This document shows, in pieces, positions 2,352 through 28,810 of a stretch of DNA of 61,908 bases. Within the stretch, counting starts at the first letter, position 1; each line of letters starts with the position of its first letter. The stretch lies in assembly GCA_046262115.1 (NCBI GenBank), contig JBHENJ010000029.1, forward strand, positions 1 through 61,908. Direction: 5' to 3'. This stretch comes from Candidatus Limnocylindria bacterium. Lineage in GTDB: Bacteria; Chloroflexota; Limnocylindria; QHBO01. The notes under the pieces are model-generated. The model had not been told where the DNA came from. It saw only the letters and a list, made by a program, of their open reading frames with translations, and did no database searches. The translations under genes and the position numbers were made by a program.

Positions 2352-2699
2352 TCAGCCGAGGATGCGAGGCAGGTTGCTCGCCAGATCCCAGGCACCGACG
2401 GCGATCAGGGCAACGCCGACAACGAGCTGAAGCGCGCGCTCATGCTTCACGACGGCGCGCACGACTTGCGCTCCTCGTCCGGTCCCGATCGTCCCCAGGA
2501 GGAAAAGCGGCAGCCCGAAGCCCACGCCGAATGCGCCGAAGAAGAGCAACCGCCCCAGCGCGTCACCGATGGTCAGGCTGAAGGTAAAAAAGCCGACCAG
2601 GAACGGCCCGCTGCACGGGATGGCCATCGGGGCGAAGAGCAGGCCGTAGCTGAACGCACCGATGATTGGTCCGCGCTGCCCGATCGGTCCGATGCCGAT
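2352..2699 (-). pseudogene. CcdA/DsbD-type cytochrome c biogenesis membrane protein, C-terminal ~115 aa only
   Basis: Tail of ORF 2352..2918: GPIIGAFSYGLLFAPMAIPCSGPFLVGFFTFSL...GLPLFLLGT...LVVGVALIAVGAW. The N-terminal half, which should carry the first Cys-containing TM segments, is missing. Confidence 0.55.
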
Positions 2700-12677: not shown

Positions 12678-12752
12678 GGCGGAGTAGCTCAGTGGCAGAG
12701 CAGGGGACTCATAAGCCCTTGGTCGGTGGTTCGAATCCGCCCTCCGCTACCA
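12678..12752 (+). tRNA. tRNA with CAU anticodon (elongator Met or lysidine-dependent Ile2), CCA encoded
   Basis: GGCGGAG-TA-GCTC-AGTGGCA-GAGC-A-GGGGA-CTCATAA-GCCCT-TGGTC-GGTGG-TTCGAAT-CCGCC-CTCCGCT-A-CCA. The cloverleaf folds with G1.U72 and G27.U43 wobbles and an A31.G39 mismatch. C11:G24 argues against an initiator tRNA. Confidence 0.9.
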
Positions 12753-22794: not shown

Positions 22795-23997
22795 ATGCCA
22801 ACCACCAAGGTGCTCGTCGTCGACGACGACGTGAACGTCCAGCGAGTGCTCGTCGCCCAGCTCCGACAGGAGGGCTACGACGTCGTAGTCGCGAGCGACG
22901 GCGTTTCAGCCGTCACGCTCGCGGCGAGCGAGCACCCCGACCTGATCCTGATGGACGTCGCGATGCCGCGACTCGACGGGTACGCCGCGACCCAGCAGAT
23001 CCGCGCCGCGGAAGTCGACGGGCACGTTCCGATCCTGATGCTCGCGGCCGAGGTGGACGCCGAGCAGCGGATCCAGGGCCTCCGCGCCGGCGCCGACGAC
23101 TTCATCCTGAAGCCGTTTCATCCGCTCGAGTTGACGGCGAGGATCAAGGCGCTGCTGGCACGGACACAGGCCGCGCGGCCGCCGGTCGCGGACAAACCGC
23201 TCGATCAGACCGGGCCGGGCGCCGGAAAGCTGTGGGTCTTCTACGGCGCCAAGGGAGGCGTGGGAACGACCACCATCGCGATCAACACCGCAATTGCACT
23301 CGCCCGCTTCGCGAAGCGACGGACCGCCCTGATCGATGCCAATCTGCAGTTCGGCGACCTCCGCGTCTTCCTCGATATCGGTCTCGACCAGCGCTCGATC
23401 GTCGACGCCATCAGCGAGCCCGAGTTGGACGCGGATCTCCTCAGGGACGTCATGGTGACGCATCCCAGCGGCGTCGACCTCCTGTTGGCCCCGCCGTCAC
23501 CGGAGGCCGCCGACATCGTCGTCGAGCGTCAGCGCCAGGACGCGAGCTCGGTCACGCACCTCCTGAACGTCGTGCGCCGCACGCACGACTTCACCCTCGT
23601 CGACACGGCCAAGACGATCGACGACTTCAACCTGCACCTCATGGACGAGGCCGATGTGATCTACGTCGTCCTAACTGCCGACCTGTCCTGCCTGAAGAAC
23701 GTCCGCCTCGTGATCGAGACGATGGACAACCTCGGCTACGAGCGGAGCAAGGTTCAGCTGGTGTTGAATCGGTCGAATGCGTACACCGGCATCAACCTGC
23801 GCAACATCGAGGCGGCGCTCCAGCGAAAGATCGATCACCAGATCATCAACGAGTATCGGGCCGCGATCAGCGCGCTGAACTCCGGAGAGCCGGTGATGTG
23901 GAGCCGGCCGGACGTCCCGCTCGCGCGGAGCGTCCGCGACTTTGCCCGGGTCGCGCAGGGCGCGGTCCCGGCGGAGGCCGTCGCCTCCCGAGGCTGA
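22795..23997 (+). CDS. Response-regulator receiver fused to a CpaE/TadZ-like ParA/MinD ATPase
   Basis: ORF 22795..23997: VLVVDDD, LILMDVAMPRLDG, FILKPF (REC domain), then WVFYGAKGGVGTTTIAINTA (deviant Walker A). Confidence 0.8.
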   Translation: MPTTKVLVVDDDVNVQRVLVAQLRQEGYDVVVASDGVSAVTLAASEHPDLILMDVAMPRLDGYAATQQIRAAEVDGHVPILMLAAEVDAEQRIQGLRAGADDFILKPFHPLELTARIKALLARTQAARPPVADKPLDQTGPGAGKLWVFYGAKGGVGTTTIAINTAIALARFAKRRTALIDANLQFGDLRVFLDIGLDQRSIVDAISEPELDADLLRDVMVTHPSGVDLLLAPPSPEAADIVVERQRQDASSVTHLLNVVRRTHDFTLVDTAKTIDDFNLHLMDEADVIYVVLTADLSCLKNVRLVIETMDNLGYERSKVQLVLNRSNAYTGINLRNIEAALQRKIDHQIINEYRAAISALNSGEPVMWSRPDVPLARSVRDFARVAQGAVPAEAVASRG

Positions 23998-24112: not shown

Positions 24113-24188
24113 CAACGACCAAGCGTAACGGTGGCGGCTGCGGAGGTCAAGTGTGAGTTAACGGCCCCGCCTTCGCGGCCGAGCCGAC

Positions 24189-25502
24189 TCAGGTCGGAAG
24201 CGAGACCTCGGCGTCGAGTGCCTCGCGCGCCAGGCGGTACGCCTGCTCGTGCTCGCCGGTGTCGGCTGCCACGTCCGCCCACTCTCGAAGCGCCTCGCGC
24301 AGCCGCGCGCGAGGTCCGCGCGCGCGGAGCAGCGACGCGGCGCGCTCGAAGTCCGCGGCGGCGGCGTCGAGCCGGCCGGCTCGACGCGCCGCCCGCGCCC
24401 GGGTGAGAAGGGCGCTCCCGAGCGCCTTGTCGTTCGACGATCTCTCGGCGAATGCGATCGCCTCGGCGGCTCGATCGACGGCGGTGTCGACGCGGCCGTC
24501 GGCAAGGGCGATCTGCGCCTGCGTGTCCGAAACGTGTGCAAGCCAGCGCGCGTCCCCCGTAGCCTCGAACTGGCGTCGGGCGGCATCGGTCAGTTCTGAC
24601 GCTCGCGTGAGGTTCCCGAGGGCGAGATAGGCGAGCGCGAGATCGTTCTCGATCGACGCTGTCTCGAACGCCGCGCCCGCGGCGCGGTAGAGCGCCAGGC
24701 TCTGGGTGCCCGCACGGATCGCCGCTTCGTTGTCCCCGGTCTCGCGGTAGCTGATCGCGAGCGAGAACAGGAAGGATGCGCGCCGACGGTCGTCGAGGTC
24801 GCCGGCCAGGCCGCGCGCCTCTTCGAGGTACGTGACGGCGGTGGCGTGCTCGCCTGCGCGCGACTCGACCAGCGAGAGCGCGATCAGGACGCGGACGCGC
24901 AGGTCCGGATCGGCGTCGAGACCGGCGCGTAGCCGGTCGAGCAGCCCTCGCAGGAGCGCGCGCGCCTCGTCGCCGTTATCGGTCTGGTAGAGGCCGAAGG
25001 CCAGCCAGTAGGTCGCCAGCGCGCCGTCGGCGTGAAGGCCGGCACGCGAGAACAGCTCACTCGCCTCGCTGGCGGCGGCAATCGCCTCGCGTCCGCGGTC
25101 CAGGCGGCACAGCGCTTCCGCGGCGCCGCACAGCAGCTCGGCGCGCGCGATGGGCTCCGTCTCCGTCTCGAGAAGCGCGAGGTACGCATCGGCCGCCGGC
25201 CGCCAATTCCCGATGGCCAGCTGCATGTCCGCCTCGAGCCGATTCCATCCGGGCGGCTCATGGCCCAGCAGTGACGCGGGGCTCACGCCGAGCCGCTCGG
25301 CGAAAAACGTCAACGCGGCCATCGAAGGCCGCGAGGCACCGTGCTCGATCGCGCTCACGAACGCCTTGGTGTAGCGATCGCCCGCGAGCTGCTGCTGGGA
25401 CATCCCGGATCGGAGTCGTGCCTCGCGAAGCCGTGCGCCGATGCGCTCGGCGAGCTCGACGTTGGCACGCTCCGCTGCACGAGCAGCGATCCGGGGGGAC
25501 AT
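24189..25502 (-). CDS. XRE-family HTH + TPR-repeat transcriptional regulator (437 aa)
   Basis: ORF 24189..26594 trimmed to MSPRIAARAAE (ATG 25502-25500). HTH: LREARLRSGMSQQQLAGDRYTKAFVSAIEHGASRPSMAALTFFAERLGV. The remainder is repeated Ala/Leu-rich TPR-like helices. Confidence 0.8.
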   Translation of the reverse strand: MSPRIAARAAERANVELAERIGARLREARLRSGMSQQQLAGDRYTKAFVSAIEHGASRPSMAALTFFAERLGVSPASLLGHEPPGWNRLEADMQLAIGNWRPAADAYLALLETETEPIARAELLCGAAEALCRLDRGREAIAAASEASELFSRAGLHADGALATYWLAFGLYQTDNGDEARALLRGLLDRLRAGLDADPDLRVRVLIALSLVESRAGEHATAVTYLEEARGLAGDLDDRRRASFLFSLAISYRETGDNEAAIRAGTQSLALYRAAGAAFETASIENDLALAYLALGNLTRASELTDAARRQFEATGDARWLAHVSDTQAQIALADGRVDTAVDRAAEAIAFAERSSNDKALGSALLTRARAARRAGRLDAAAADFERAASLLRARGPRARLREALREWADVAADTGEHEQAYRLAREALDAEVSLPT

Positions 25503-25522
25503 GGCGGCAAGTGTATGCGCGG

Positions 25523-25541
25523 CGTCAACACGCCGTTGACG
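25523..25541. promoter_or_regulatory. Inverted repeat CGTCAAC-acgcc-GTTGACG (candidate operator)
   Basis: 7-bp perfect arms 21 nt upstream of the regulator start, in the divergent intergenic region shared with the sORF. Confidence 0.35.
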
Positions 25542-25710
25542 GCGGTAAGCCGCAGGTAAGCGGGCGCTGGTACGAACGGCTGCGCGATCTGCGCCCGGCC
25601 GGTACGGATGGGCCATTTCGGCTGACGCGAGCCGGCGGGAGCATCGGGACTCGGCTCCGTGCGCCGCGGGCGGGGTCGGCGTCATACGGCGGCACGCACT
25701 AGGGAGGTCG

Positions 25711-25833
25711 ATGATGCGATCCGGGAGAATCGGGCGCCCGCTGCTTGCAGCGTGGCTGCTGACCGCGATCCTCGCGACGCTGAACGTCGTGGTCGCGCTC
25801 GCCGACAGCGGCGGCGGTCCATTCCCGCGCTGA
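25711..25833 (+). CDS. 40-aa sORF: Sec-type signal peptide followed by a 9-residue tail (candidate secreted propeptide)
   Basis: AGGGAGG at 25701-25707, then ATGATG. Translation: MMRSGRIGRPLLAAWLLTAILATLNVVVALA|DSGGGPFPR*. It is followed by a strong hairpin. Not in the ORF track because it is under 60 aa. Confidence 0.45.
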   Translation: MMRSGRIGRPLLAAWLLTAILATLNVVVALADSGGGPFPR

Positions 25834-25875
25834 CCACACTCTCGGCCGCATCGAGCGGCCCCGAAACGACGGAGA

Positions 25876-25900
25876 GACGCCGGTCCGAGTGACCGGCGTC
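25876..25900 (+). terminator. 10-bp perfect hairpin GACGCCGGTC-cgagt-GACCGGCGTC followed by TT
   Basis: Read directly from the sequence, 43 nt after the sORF stop. The U-tract is weak. Confidence 0.45.
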
Positions 25901-26066
25901 TTCGCGTGTCGGGCAAGGCGGTGCACTCACCCCGATAAGCCGCGGCTAAATCGCGGGTAACCGCGTCCTCGTACGGTGCCACCGCCGGTCGCCGCTGGAA
26001 TTGGGAGGCGAGCAGGCGGGCGGCCGGCACTCTTCGCCTCCTCATCGTCAAGCCACGAGGACGCCC

Positions 26067-27578
26067 ATGCTTGCGCAGGCCCTGACGGCGTCGCTCCTGG
26101 GCGTCCAGGGCGTCCTGGTACGCGTCGAGGTCGACGTCTCGTTCGGGCTTCCGGGCGTCACGATCGTCGGCCTCGCGGGCAGCGCAATCCAGGAAGCGCG
26201 GGAACGCGTTCGGTCGGCGATCCGCAATGCCGGGTTCGACGTGCCGTCGCGGCGAGTCACTGTCAATCTCGCCCCTGCAGACCTTCCCAAAGAGGGAACC
26301 TCCTACGACCTCGCGATCGCGGTGGCCGTGCTTTCCGCGTCGGGTCAGCTCGGCCCGCTCCCGAACGACACCGCCCTGTTCGGGGAGCTGGCCCTGGATG
26401 GGCGGCTCCAAGCGGTGCCCGGGACGATGGCGCTCGTGGCAGCGGCGCGTGACGCAGGCGTGAGCGACGTCGTCGTTCCCGCCGCGGTCACAGAGGAAGC
26501 GGCCGCGGTCGGCGCCCTCAACGTCCGTCCGGCGACGAGTCTCGGCGAGGTGGTGCGCCATCTCGCCGGCGTCGCCCGACTCCCTGTGGCACATCCTCCG
26601 GCGACGCTCGCGAACGGGAACGTCCGATCAGCGCCCGATCTGTCCGTCGTGATCGGTCAGAGGCTCGCTCGGCGCGCACTCGAGATCGCCATCGCGGGAA
26701 GGCATAGCCTGGCGCTGTGCGGTCCGCCCGGAGTCGGCAAGACGCTGCTGATGCGTTGCGCGCCGGGGCTCGCGCCCCCGCTCTCGGACGCCGAATCGCT
26801 CGAGGTGAGCCGGATCTATTCAGTCGCGGGACTTGCCGACCGGCGCCGCCCGGTCGTTCGCGACCGCCCATTTCGTGCGCCGCACCACACGATCTCGACC
26901 CAGGCTCTTGTCGGTGGCGGACCTCGGGTCCGCCCGGGCGAGGCGAGCCTCGCTCACCGCGGCATGCTGTTCCTCGACGAGACCCTCGAGTTTCGCGCGG
27001 ACGCCCTCGACGCGTTGCGTCAGCCGCTCGAGTCGGGGGCAGTGACGATCGCCCGCGTGGACGGCGTCCTCGAGCTGCCGGCACGATTCACCCTCCTGGC
27101 GGCGTTCAACCCGTGCTCGTGCGGCTGGCTTGGCTCGTCGTCCCAGGCGTGCGCGTGCGACGCGATTGCCGTGCGGCGCTATGCCGGCCGCCTCTCGGGT
27201 CCACTGCGCGACCGGCTCGACCTCTTCGTGTCGATGGCGCCTACGCACGCGTACGACCGGGATGGCGAGTTGTCAGAGGCGACGCCGCCGGTGGCGAGCC
27301 GCATCGCCGGCGCGTGGGATCGTCAGCTGAGAAGGCAGGGGACCGCGAACTCGGAGATCCGGCCGGAGTGCCTCGACGAACGATCCGGATTCAGCGCCAC
27401 CACGCGCTCGACGCTCGCGACGCGAGCGCGGCAGCTGCGGTTGTCCACGCGACGCGCCCACTCGATCGCCCGCGTTGCTCGCACCATCGCCGACCTGGAG
27501 GCGAGTGACCGGGTCGATCCGTCGCACGTCGACGAAGCCGCGCGCTACCGATCGGACCCGTGGGCGGCAGCGCCGTGA
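26067..27578 (+). CDS. comM: YifB/ComM-family Mg-chelatase-like AAA+ ATPase
   Basis: ORF 26001..27578 trimmed to MLAQALTASLLGVQG. Motifs: LPGVTIVGL, GPPGVGKT, MLFLDE. Confidence 0.9.
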   Translation: MLAQALTASLLGVQGVLVRVEVDVSFGLPGVTIVGLAGSAIQEARERVRSAIRNAGFDVPSRRVTVNLAPADLPKEGTSYDLAIAVAVLSASGQLGPLPNDTALFGELALDGRLQAVPGTMALVAAARDAGVSDVVVPAAVTEEAAAVGALNVRPATSLGEVVRHLAGVARLPVAHPPATLANGNVRSAPDLSVVIGQRLARRALEIAIAGRHSLALCGPPGVGKTLLMRCAPGLAPPLSDAESLEVSRIYSVAGLADRRRPVVRDRPFRAPHHTISTQALVGGGPRVRPGEASLAHRGMLFLDETLEFRADALDALRQPLESGAVTIARVDGVLELPARFTLLAAFNPCSCGWLGSSSQACACDAIAVRRYAGRLSGPLRDRLDLFVSMAPTHAYDRDGELSEATPPVASRIAGAWDRQLRRQGTANSEIRPECLDERSGFSATTRSTLATRARQLRLSTRRAHSIARVARTIADLEASDRVDPSHVDEAARYRSDPWAAAP

Positions 27579-28810
27579 GCGTCGGGCTGTCCGGCCCCCT
27601 CTCCGTCCCTTGGCCCCGTCCGGAGGGCGCTCGGGGACGCGCGGGCGCCGGATGGGGCGCGCTCGACCTCGGGCGGATCGACGCACAACGCGAGCGACCG
27701 TATTGGCTGGCGCTGGCGAACGTGCCGGGCATCGGTCCGGTGAGCTTCGCGCGGCTGCTGCACCGCTTCGGCGGCGCCGAGGCAGCATGGCGCGCCGGGA
27801 TGGCCCTGCTCGAGGTGGTCGAGCGCGCACCGGCCGAAGCCGGCGCCGCGATCGCCGCGATCGAAGTGGAGGGCGTGGTGCGCTTCGCCGGCCGGCTCGA
27901 ACGCGACCTGGACCGCGTGGGCGCCTTCGCCGTGGCCGCGTACGACGCGCGCTATCCCGCTGCGCTGGCCGACCTCGATCCGCGCCCCGCCGTGCTCTAC
28001 CTGAGGGGCTCAACCGCAGTGCTCGACCCGCTCTGTGTGGCCGTAGTCGGCACGCGGCGTCCCACCGGGTACGGACTGACCATCGCCCGCGAGATAGCCG
28101 ACGAGCTGTCCCGCGCCGGCGCGTCGATCGTGTCGGGTCTGGCGGTCGGGATCGATGGGGAGGCTCATGCGGCATGCCTCGACGCCGCGGGACGCACGGT
28201 CGCCGTGCTGCCGTGCCCGATCGACCGGGTCTACCCGCCGCGACATCGCGCGTTGGCCGATCGCATCCTTGAGTCAGGCGGCCTGCTCGTATCCGAGCTC
28301 GCACCCGACCGCGCCGTCGGGAAGCCGGACTTCGCGCGGCGCAATCGCATAATCGCCGGACTCGCGCGCGCCACGATCGTGGTCGAGGCGCCGGACGGCT
28401 CCGGCGCGCTTCTCACCGCCGCAGCTGCACTCCAGTGCGGACGCGACGTGTACGCAGTCCCGGGTCCCATCGACGCCGTCACGTCGCGTGGTTGCAACCG
28501 GCTGATCGCCGACCAGTCGGCGGCGCTCGTGACGTCGGCCGTCGCGCTTAGCCACCAACTGGGAGCCACGCCGGGCGGCAAACCGATCAGCGTCGCGAGC
28601 CTCTCCGAACCGGAGGCAATCGTCCTGGCGGCGCTGTTCAGGCGAAGCGGCTCGATCGAGGAACTGATCGATCGCACGCGGCTGCGGACGTCGCTGGTGG
28701 CGGCTGCATTGACGATGCTGGAGGCGCGCCGGCTGGTGACGTCATATGGTGGCGCGACGTTCCATGTCACCCTCGACGCCCGCCGGCTCGAGCGTAACGG
28801 CCGAGTCTGA
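27575..28810 (+). CDS. dprA: DNA-processing protein DprA
   Basis: ORF 27560..28810: VVGTRRPTGYG, SGLAVGIDGEAH, RNRIIAGLA. The GTG at 27575 forms a GTGA overlap with the comM stop. The GTG at 27560 is an alternative start. Confidence 0.9.
   Translation: MSVGLSGPLSVPWPRPEGARGRAGAGWGALDLGRIDAQRERPYWLALANVPGIGPVSFARLLHRFGGAEAAWRAGMALLEVVERAPAEAGAAIAAIEVEGVVRFAGRLERDLDRVGAFAVAAYDARYPAALADLDPRPAVLYLRGSTAVLDPLCVAVVGTRRPTGYGLTIAREIADELSRAGASIVSGLAVGIDGEAHAACLDAAGRTVAVLPCPIDRVYPPRHRALADRILESGGLLVSELAPDRAVGKPDFARRNRIIAGLARATIVVEAPDGSGALLTAAAALQCGRDVYAVPGPIDAVTSRGCNRLIADQSAALVTSAVALSHQLGATPGGKPISVASLSEPEAIVLAALFRRSGSIEELIDRTRLRTSLVAAALTMLEARRLVTSYGGATFHVTLDARRLERNGRV

Follow-up and report, generated by a model that had tools for sequence, protein, structure and literature searches.

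A 61,908-nt stretch of DNA from a Candidatus Limnocylindria bacterium (contig JBHENJ010000029.1, referred to here in its full length as the window) carries a divergent gene pair that is a probable RRNPP-like peptide–receptor system outside Bacillota. One gene encodes a 437-aa regulator with an XRE-type helix-turn-helix (HTH) domain followed by about eight helical hairpins resembling tetratricopeptide repeats (TPRs) (24189–25502, minus strand). The other is a small open reading frame (sORF; 25711–25833, plus strand) encoding a 40-aa peptide that consists of MMRSGRIGRPLLAAWLLTAILATLNVVVALA followed by DSGGGPFPR (full product, MMRSGRIGRPLLAAWLLTAILATLNVVVALADSGGGPFPR). The two start codons are separated by 208 nt (25503–25710). 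A first-pass annotation of this DNA had proposed the HTH–TPR regulator and, 208 nt away in divergent orientation, an sORF with its own AGGGAGG ribosome-binding site, and both genes were confirmed. New here are the conservation of the pair across a whole family, leaderless alleles of the peptide gene and a conserved dyad between the genes. With moderate confidence, we read the two genes as a cell-signalling cassette that most likely functions in the same way as Firmicutes RRNPP systems.

In the mechanism that we infer, which runs from peptide export and cleavage through uptake and binding to activation or repression, the sORF would be translated into a 39- or 40-aa prepeptide; Sec would export it and signal peptidase would cleave it behind A-L-A, giving the ~9-residue DSGGGPFPR, possibly trimmed further. 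At sufficient concentration the peptide would re-enter the cell and bind the regulator on the concave side of its TPR superhelix. The liganded regulator would then act differently on the dyad GTCAA-N7-TTGAC between the genes, so that the pair would be autoregulated and unlinked targets controlled as well. In the roughly one quarter of the family in which the signal peptide has been deleted in frame, a 12-mer would be made directly in the cytoplasm, where it could act cell-autonomously, or it could act after leaderless export, as RopB-SIP peptides do.

The gene pair, its products and its dyad

DNA was fetched around 88 regulator orthologues, and the counts given here use the 73 loci with enough upstream sequence plus the window, 74 in all. 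A divergent sORF of the same family was present in 73 of these 73 orthologous loci, whose regulators are 53–89% identical and come from Candidatus Limnocylindria (Chloroflexota); in four further loci the beginning of the sORF was visible before the contig ended. The first-pass annotation had staked its reading on orthologous regulators keeping an adjacent conserved sORF, and they do. The distance between the sORF start and the beginning of the regulator match is 96–382 nt, with a median of 191 nt (73 loci). The flanking genes, by comparison, fall into at least three unrelated genomic contexts. In the window's clade the cassette stands between a CpaE-like response regulator and ComM-DprA; in most loci it has LigD, and sometimes NifU, on one side and a 184-aa hypothetical gene and then DUF3090 on the other; the rest show other gene arrangements. 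Since the flanks vary and only the pair is constant, the regulator and the sORF are the unit of inheritance.

Every predicted orthologous sORF start, whether of a long or a short form, is preceded at 5–10 nt by a GGAG-type Shine-Dalgarno site. The length of the sORF (37–41 or 12 codons), its frame and its stop position are conserved, and the third codon position is the most variable in the alignment. From this pattern the sORF is judged to be a genuine coding gene. A profile built from the peptides recovered 383 database clusters, all unnamed or 'hypothetical' and without a Pfam match.

The long forms make up 53 of the 74 members and measure 37–41 aa. Signal peptides were called heuristically, by their n/h/c architecture and the −3/−1 rule. 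Among the 51 unique long-form sequences, net charges of the n-region run from +1 to +5 (+2 to +5 in 50 of the 51), and the hydrophobic h/c region is 21–22 residues long in 50. Val (39) or Ala (12) occupies position −3 and Ala (47) or Gly (4) position −1, so that the −3/−1 rule is kept in 51 of 51. The window's sORF conforms: its predicted Sec signal peptide (25711–25803, plus strand) has a positive n-region, a 21–22-residue h/c region and A-L-A at −3 to −1, and is followed by the predicted mature peptide DSGGGPFPR (25804–25830, plus strand). The Sec signal with an A-x-A cleavage motif and a nine-residue tail, as first suggested from this one sequence, thus belongs to a family-wide predicted pattern. 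Across the family the predicted mature part has 8–11 residues, made up of x-[ST]-G-G-x-x-[FW]-P plus 0–3 further residues that are often basic; other examples are ATGGGDFPRFR, GSGGPPMPR and ASTGGDWP. No other segment of the peptide alignment is as well conserved as this C-terminal motif, and the motif is retained after loss of the leader, which suggests that the C-terminal 8–11 residues are the functional unit. Many long-form n-regions read M-R-T-R-R-I-[VF]-R-S (for example in locus L016, 4698–4823, minus strand) and resemble a twin-arginine translocation (Tat) motif; for a cargo of 9–11 aa, Sec is the simpler reading.

The Shine-Dalgarno site of the window's sORF, AGGGAGG (25701–25707, plus strand), lies 3 nt from a first ATG (25711) and 6 nt from a second (25714). 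A 39-aa product starting at 25714 is the more likely, because the one Met of the orthologues aligns with the second ATG and because a database peptide, P0157, which is 97% identical and encoded on the same 2927-bp contig as locus L012, is 39 aa long. The sequence of the 40-aa propeptide first proposed was exactly as quoted, and only its length is probably one residue too great. On the 3′ side of the sORF, the 10-bp terminator hairpin of the first-pass annotation proved to be a perfect 11-bp stem (25875–25885 and 25891–25901, plus strand) with a 5-nt loop. The computed folding energy of this region is −46.2 kcal/mol (z = −4.2 relative to shuffled sequences), and the stem-loop is terminator-like except that no U-tract follows the stem, which is why the terminator scan misses it; consensus promoter and terminator scans of 25300–26100 called nothing. 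A stable hairpin lies 3′ of the sORF in nearly all orthologous loci, the shuffle control applying to the window.

In the regulator, Pfam placed HTH_3 at residues 25–76 (25275–25430, minus strand) and TPR_12 (E = 3e-17) and TPR_2 over residues ~92–430. An AlphaFold2 model made with 25 homologues as input has a mean pLDDT (predicted local distance difference test score) of 89 and is all-helical, with a five-helix HTH region and then ~16–17 paired helices that form ~8 TPR-like hairpins. The resulting superhelix (residues ~88–433; 24204–25241, minus strand), delimited by the model's helices and backed by Foldseek matches, is the presumed peptide-binding domain. The regulator has neither a signal peptide nor a transmembrane segment, as in a cytoplasmic TPR-type protein. 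Invariant across the regulator family is the motif R-Y-T-K-A-x-x-S-A-x-E-x-G in the recognition-helix region (R43 Y44 T45 K46 A47 S50 A51 E53 G55); D237-R241, N286 and W320 are among the residues that do not vary in the TPR part. More than 1000 regulator homologues were present in the database; those listed are nearly all 427–444 aa long and 58–89% identical, and those with a named source nearly always come from Candidatus Limnocylindria, Limnocylindrales or Chloroflexota. A search of genome contigs with the single regulator protein returned HTH-level matches in unrelated bacteria and nothing beyond these.

The intergenic region contains the dyad CGGCGTCAAC-N5-GTTGACGGCG (25520–25544), with 10-bp arms and the core GTCAA-N7-TTGAC (GTCAAC-N5-GTTGAC), which is the sole perfect copy within the 62-kb window. 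When distinct orthologous intergenic regions were scored for G[G/T]CAA-N7-TTGAC, 62 of 72 reached 9–10 of 10 and the spacer was always 7, while ~1.5% of shuffled intergenic sequences reached 9 of 10. The dyad is a candidate operator, which would fit the invariance of the HTH recognition-helix region, but it could equally represent, instead or in addition, back-to-back −35 elements of divergent promoters.

Leaderless alleles of the peptide gene

In 21 of the 74 loci the position of the sORF is taken by a leaderless mini-ORF, each with its own Shine-Dalgarno site. Twenty of these have 12 codons and one, in locus L053, has ~19; examples are MRSAHTGGGWPS, MRHASTGGGWPV, MRSATTGGGWPL, MRTASCGGGWPR and MQSITNGSGFPR. 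The 12-mers consist of M-R-x plus the predicted mature peptide. Compared with the long form of locus L082, MRTQRILRSILVACSLAALSAMSFATAVLG followed by ASTGGNWP, they correspond to its first three codons joined to its predicted mature peptide, and a single in-frame 81-nt indel relative to the nearest long forms takes out the body of the signal peptide. Mean pairwise identity is 78% over the 36-nt mini-ORF and 56–59% in the flanking DNA on either side.

These identities indicate purifying selection on the leaderless alleles and, because selection has kept the conserved tail after the leader was lost, a peptide function that is independent of Sec export. That the peptide persists when its signal for export is gone speaks for a target in the cytoplasm, and its one constant neighbour is the TPR regulator. 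It is this retention, together with the pair being the only conserved unit, that leads us to regard the peptide as the regulator's probable ligand rather than as a mere target of its control.

The history of the leader loss was followed on a neighbour-joining tree of the regulators with bootstrapping. In none of 100 replicates did the leaderless loci form a monophyletic group; L082 and L090, both long-form loci, always fell among them, and parsimony on the regulator tree gave 3–5 state changes. Several independent deletions would nevertheless be surprising, given that nearly every leaderless allele is exactly 12 codons long; alternatively, the leader may have been deleted once, with recombination afterwards, or the tree may be in error.

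The first-pass annotation had missed these alleles, which bring RopB-SIP-type leaderless peptides into the comparison. SIP is the 8-aa product of a 24-bp ultrasmall ORF that adjoins the RRNPPA receptor RopB and has no secretion or processing sequence, and RRNPPA receptors pair with peptides of both types, classical propeptides and leaderless SIP (PMC10518010). An ultrasmall ORF beside the receptor, with neither leader nor cleavage sites, as in RopB-SIP and other leaderless communication peptides (LCPs) of Firmicutes, is found in 21 of the 74 loci; the window itself carries a long form. Unlike SIP, the leaderless peptides described here are derived, through the in-frame 81-nt indel, from an ancestor with a Sec leader within the same orthologous family. 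Nor did the receptor match any Rgg- or RopB-type family or domain, which places it outside the RopB/Rgg clan.

Known systems and alternative explanations

The systems closest in function and layout are NprR-NprX and PlcR-PapR of the Bacillus cereus group. NprR has ~420–440 aa, an N-terminal XRE HTH and ~8–9 TPRs, and NprX is a ~40-aa Sec-signal propeptide whose C-terminal 7–8 residues are the signal. The window's pair resembles this system in receptor size and TPR number, in the XRE HTH followed by a run of TPRs and in the adjacent gene for a Sec-signal propeptide of ~40 aa. It differs in that no sequence homology is detectable outside the HTH and generic TPRs, in that the genes are divergent here and co-directional there, and in its host, which is Chloroflexota here and Bacillota there. 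The HTH of PlcR (PlcR residues 3–63) was the top sequence match among solved structures (E = 2.3e-9, regulator residues 18–78 only), and the PlcR-PapR7-DNA complex (3u3w) was matched by Foldseek. PlcR differs in having 285 aa and 5 TPRs, and its TM-score normalised to the window's regulator is only 0.37. In concept, the palindromic dyad in the promoter region of the window's sORF recalls the PlcR box, although its sequence, GTCAA-N7-TTGAC, differs from the TATGNAN4TNCATA of PlcR. The Rgg-SHP and ComR-ComS systems of streptococci likewise combine an HTH plus TPR-like cytoplasmic receptor with a short peptide encoded divergently or adjacently, and the HTHs of ComR (5fd4) were weak sequence matches to the regulator (E ~1e-3). 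Unlike the window's long form, neither SHP nor ComS has a Sec leader, and both rely on PptAB. In the window's clade the cassette adjoins comM and dprA, but only a minority of loci share this and a link to competence is unsupported.

The cassette thus combines a cytoplasmic TPR-type receptor, an N-terminal XRE HTH (present in all RRNPP(A) members except Rap), an adjacent propeptide gene with a predicted export signal and co-inheritance of the two. It is RRNPP-like in every tested feature except the host range described for these systems, which is Bacillota and their plasmids or phages; here the homologues, where named, are almost all assigned to Candidatus Limnocylindria or Chloroflexota, and the window is chromosomal. 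Any homologous membership of the RRNPP group would rest on the HTH and on generic TPR matches. The first-pass likeness to PlcR-PapR, NprR-NprX and Rgg-SHP therefore stands for architecture, that is, an XRE-HTH plus TPR protein beside an sORF, and not for any family match specific to RRNPP. The same annotation set this GC-rich lineage apart from the Firmicutes, and the lineage is Chloroflexota. The main RRNPP survey analysed Firmicutes genomes only (PMC10075063), the surveys consulted cover only Firmicutes and their mobile elements (PMC10075063, PMC10518010), and in full-text literature searches no report of an RRNPP-type system in Chloroflexota, Limnocylindria or Actinomycetota turned up.

Several observations weigh against reading the pair as an RRNPP-like signalling cassette. 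The structure comparison that had been called for gave matches to PlcR-PapR7-DNA (3u3w, E = 1.4e-6) and Rap-Phr (8rsv, 6t46) at E ~1e-6, but these ranked 39–47 among Foldseek matches in the PDB. The best matches were to the peptide-binding TPR domain of LGN/Pins, consensus TPR designs and OGT were also ahead of PlcR and Rap, and NprR structures were absent from the top 50. Fold ranking cannot separate an RRNPP from a generic TPR assignment and was dropped as a means of doing so; homology of the regulator to RRNPP receptors beyond the HTH is not demonstrated, the matches being to generic TPR proteins. No RRNPP- or Rgg-specific family was matched, either in Pfam by 25 family members or in NCBIfam by the window protein, for which NCBIfam gave only sub-threshold TPR and HTH matches (NsdA, AfsR, HaaT at E = 0.0096 and others). 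The peptides are also less varied than expected: RRNPP pheromones usually diversify into pherotypes, and here the mature core G-G-x-x-[FW]-P is unusually conserved. The ~70 related peptide–receptor pairs do not allow co-variation to be separated from shared ancestry. More distant relatives of the regulator (28–34% identity) lack the family sORF. Locus L100 (34%) has only a dubious repeat-containing ORF in the divergent position and L101 (28%) has none, so that the cassette appears to be confined to a clade of at least ~50% regulator identity. No oligopeptide permease was found among the scanned ORFs of the window, and a sigma-70 consensus scan called no promoter between the regulator and the sORF. 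Finally, the evidence is all computational, and the organism is uncultured and known from metagenomes only.

The main rival explanation, to which we assign a minor but appreciable probability, is that the HTH-TPR protein controls the sORF without binding its product. The peptide would then be the signal of another receptor, or a small effector, while the TPR domain would sense a protein partner or a metabolite. Divergent regulator–target pairs are common, the TPR fold matches are generic, the conserved dyad speaks for intergenic regulation and for nothing further, and a core motif that has not diversified into pherotypes is what such an arrangement would allow. The pair, however, is the only conserved unit over at least three contexts, with no other conserved neighbour able to serve as the receptor. 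Furthermore, 12-mers that stay under selection after the loss of Sec export fit a secreted effector poorly and a cytoplasmic partner well.

Much less probable is a ribosomally synthesized and post-translationally modified peptide (RiPP), in which the Gly-rich, aromatic-Pro core would be modified or cleaved (for instance after G-G) by enzymes encoded elsewhere, with the regulator serving that pathway. The long forms are built like precursors around an invariant G-G-x-x-[FW]-P core, and the weak NCBIfam match to HaaT, a RiPP-associated TPR protein, covers the TPR region, though it lies far below the cut-off. The leader, on the other hand, is a Sec signal peptide and not a RiPP recognition leader, and the 12-mers would offer an enzyme no leader to recognise. 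In none of the contexts is the cassette accompanied by a conserved modifying enzyme, peptidase-ABC exporter or immunity gene. The neighbours are ComM, DprA and the CpaE-like protein, or LigD, NifU and DUF3090, or others, and none is a RiPP enzyme.

We give marginally less weight still to a membrane-tethered micro-protein, in which an uncleaved, single-pass long form would modulate the regulator or a membrane complex. The 21–22-residue hydrophobic segment could span a membrane, and cleavage is predicted by the −3/−1 heuristic only. That rule is nevertheless kept in all 51 sequences, which implies selection for cleavage; the topology would place the conserved tail outside the cell, away from a cytoplasmic regulator; and the hydrophobic segment is what some alleles have lost while retaining the tail. 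A cis-acting leader ORF, or a chance ORF whose conservation reflects a DNA or RNA element, is the least credible explanation: spurious ORFs are plentiful in GC-rich genomes and the 12-mer ORFs show few synonymous differences, but the Shine-Dalgarno site, start, frame, stop and amino-acid pattern persist over 74 loci while the nucleotides vary, most of all at third positions, the sORF has its own 3′ hairpin while the downstream genes vary, and no Rfam family matches.

A bolder claim can also be made, to which we give slightly less than even credence. This would be the first system found outside Bacillota in which, RRNPP-style, a cytoplasmic HTH-TPR receptor senses a linear peptide that the cell secretes, chromosomal in an abundant uncultured class of Chloroflexota and arisen by very deep homology or by convergence, with a pheromone gene that was converted once or several times from a Sec propeptide to a leaderless 12-mer. 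Peptide signalling through cytoplasmic TPR receptors has been treated as a speciality of Firmicutes, and the Limnocylindria cassette would extend its logic to another phylum. Alleles with a Sec leader and leaderless alleles within one orthologous family bear directly on the origin of LCPs, and would form a natural series from 'public' quorum signals to 'private' or LCP-type signals. Ligand, receptor and operator, at 9 residues, 437 aa and 17 bp, would also form a simple triplet that can be tested in vitro, with no need for culturing.

Other regulatory DNA and genomic setting

The ATG of the regulator gene has no Shine-Dalgarno site, and a −10-like hexamer, TACACT (25510–25515, minus strand), lies 7 nt upstream of it, which suggests that the regulator mRNA may be leaderless. 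The hexamer was not called by the sigma-70 scan; an AGT.TA block is conserved at the equivalent place in orthologues. Between the dyad and the sORF is a direct repeat of GGTAAGC, two copies at 11-nt spacing (25544–25561, plus strand), which is common to the window's closest relatives L012, L013 and L019. A block conserved in a 26-locus intergenic alignment, GGTAC-N4-GGGCCATT (25601–25617, plus strand; family consensus GGTAC-N4-5-GGGTCATTG), lies ~95 nt upstream of the sORF and is a candidate promoter element or second binding site. Neither the intergenic region of the window nor any of three orthologous loci matched an RNA family in Rfam. A conserved 'hairpin', CCCCTAGTGCCCGTGCTGGTAGTAGGGG, that follows many sORFs was considered as an RNA element and rejected, being the 3′ end of a convergent nifU-like coding sequence (...NPYYQHGH, then stop); it lies at ~4620–4662 in L016 and at the equivalent place in most loci of the LigD/NifU context.

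Matches to the dyad with at most 2 mismatches number 6 in the window against 1.55 expected. One of them, a 2-mismatch copy at 24146–24162 (GTCAAGTGTGAGTTAAC), lies in the short gap just 3′ of the regulator's stop codon.

The cassette varies in a few loci. In L014, two tandem paralogous peptide genes (342–467 and 692–811, both minus strand), each with its own Shine-Dalgarno site, lie upstream of one regulator, and their products end in ...ALADSGGSPFPAPG and ...ALADSGGSPFPK. One subclade (L099, 2950–3264, plus strand; also L067, L087, L089, L093, L097 and L098) has an extra XRE-only gene of ~104 aa between the sORF and the HTH-TPR gene, and there the intergenic element TTGAYAAATRCTTGACA replaces the usual dyad. 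In the distant locus L100, the divergent ORF (2420–2539, minus strand) has 39 aa, no signal peptide and a C-terminal tandem repeat of TDPGIPPGGDR (two copies); it may be a chance ORF, and L100 also has a 139-aa ORF immediately upstream.

The window has 69% GC and carries genes of core-chromosome type, namely FtsH, a RadA-like protein, NfeD, SPFH, a CpaE-like response regulator, ComM, DprA, TopA, a XerC-like recombinase, AsnB, HisRS and AspRS, and it is core chromosome, neither phage nor plasmid. PHROGs and PADLOC matched the HTH of the regulator and nothing more, so that neither phages nor defence systems are indicated as its source. On one side of the cassette lies a gene for a receiver domain joined to a CpaE/TadZ-like ATPase (22795–23997, plus strand) and on the other comM-dprA (26001–28810, plus strand). 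This neighbourhood, with its flavour of DNA uptake, is conserved in L013 and L019; L012 and L014, which are on short contigs, show part of it, and most of the family is without it. Control of competence by the cassette was considered and dropped, because the comM-dprA context occurs in a minority of loci, limited to the window's small clade. The single RNA gene detected in the window is a tRNA-Met (CAT) at 12678–12752 on the plus strand.

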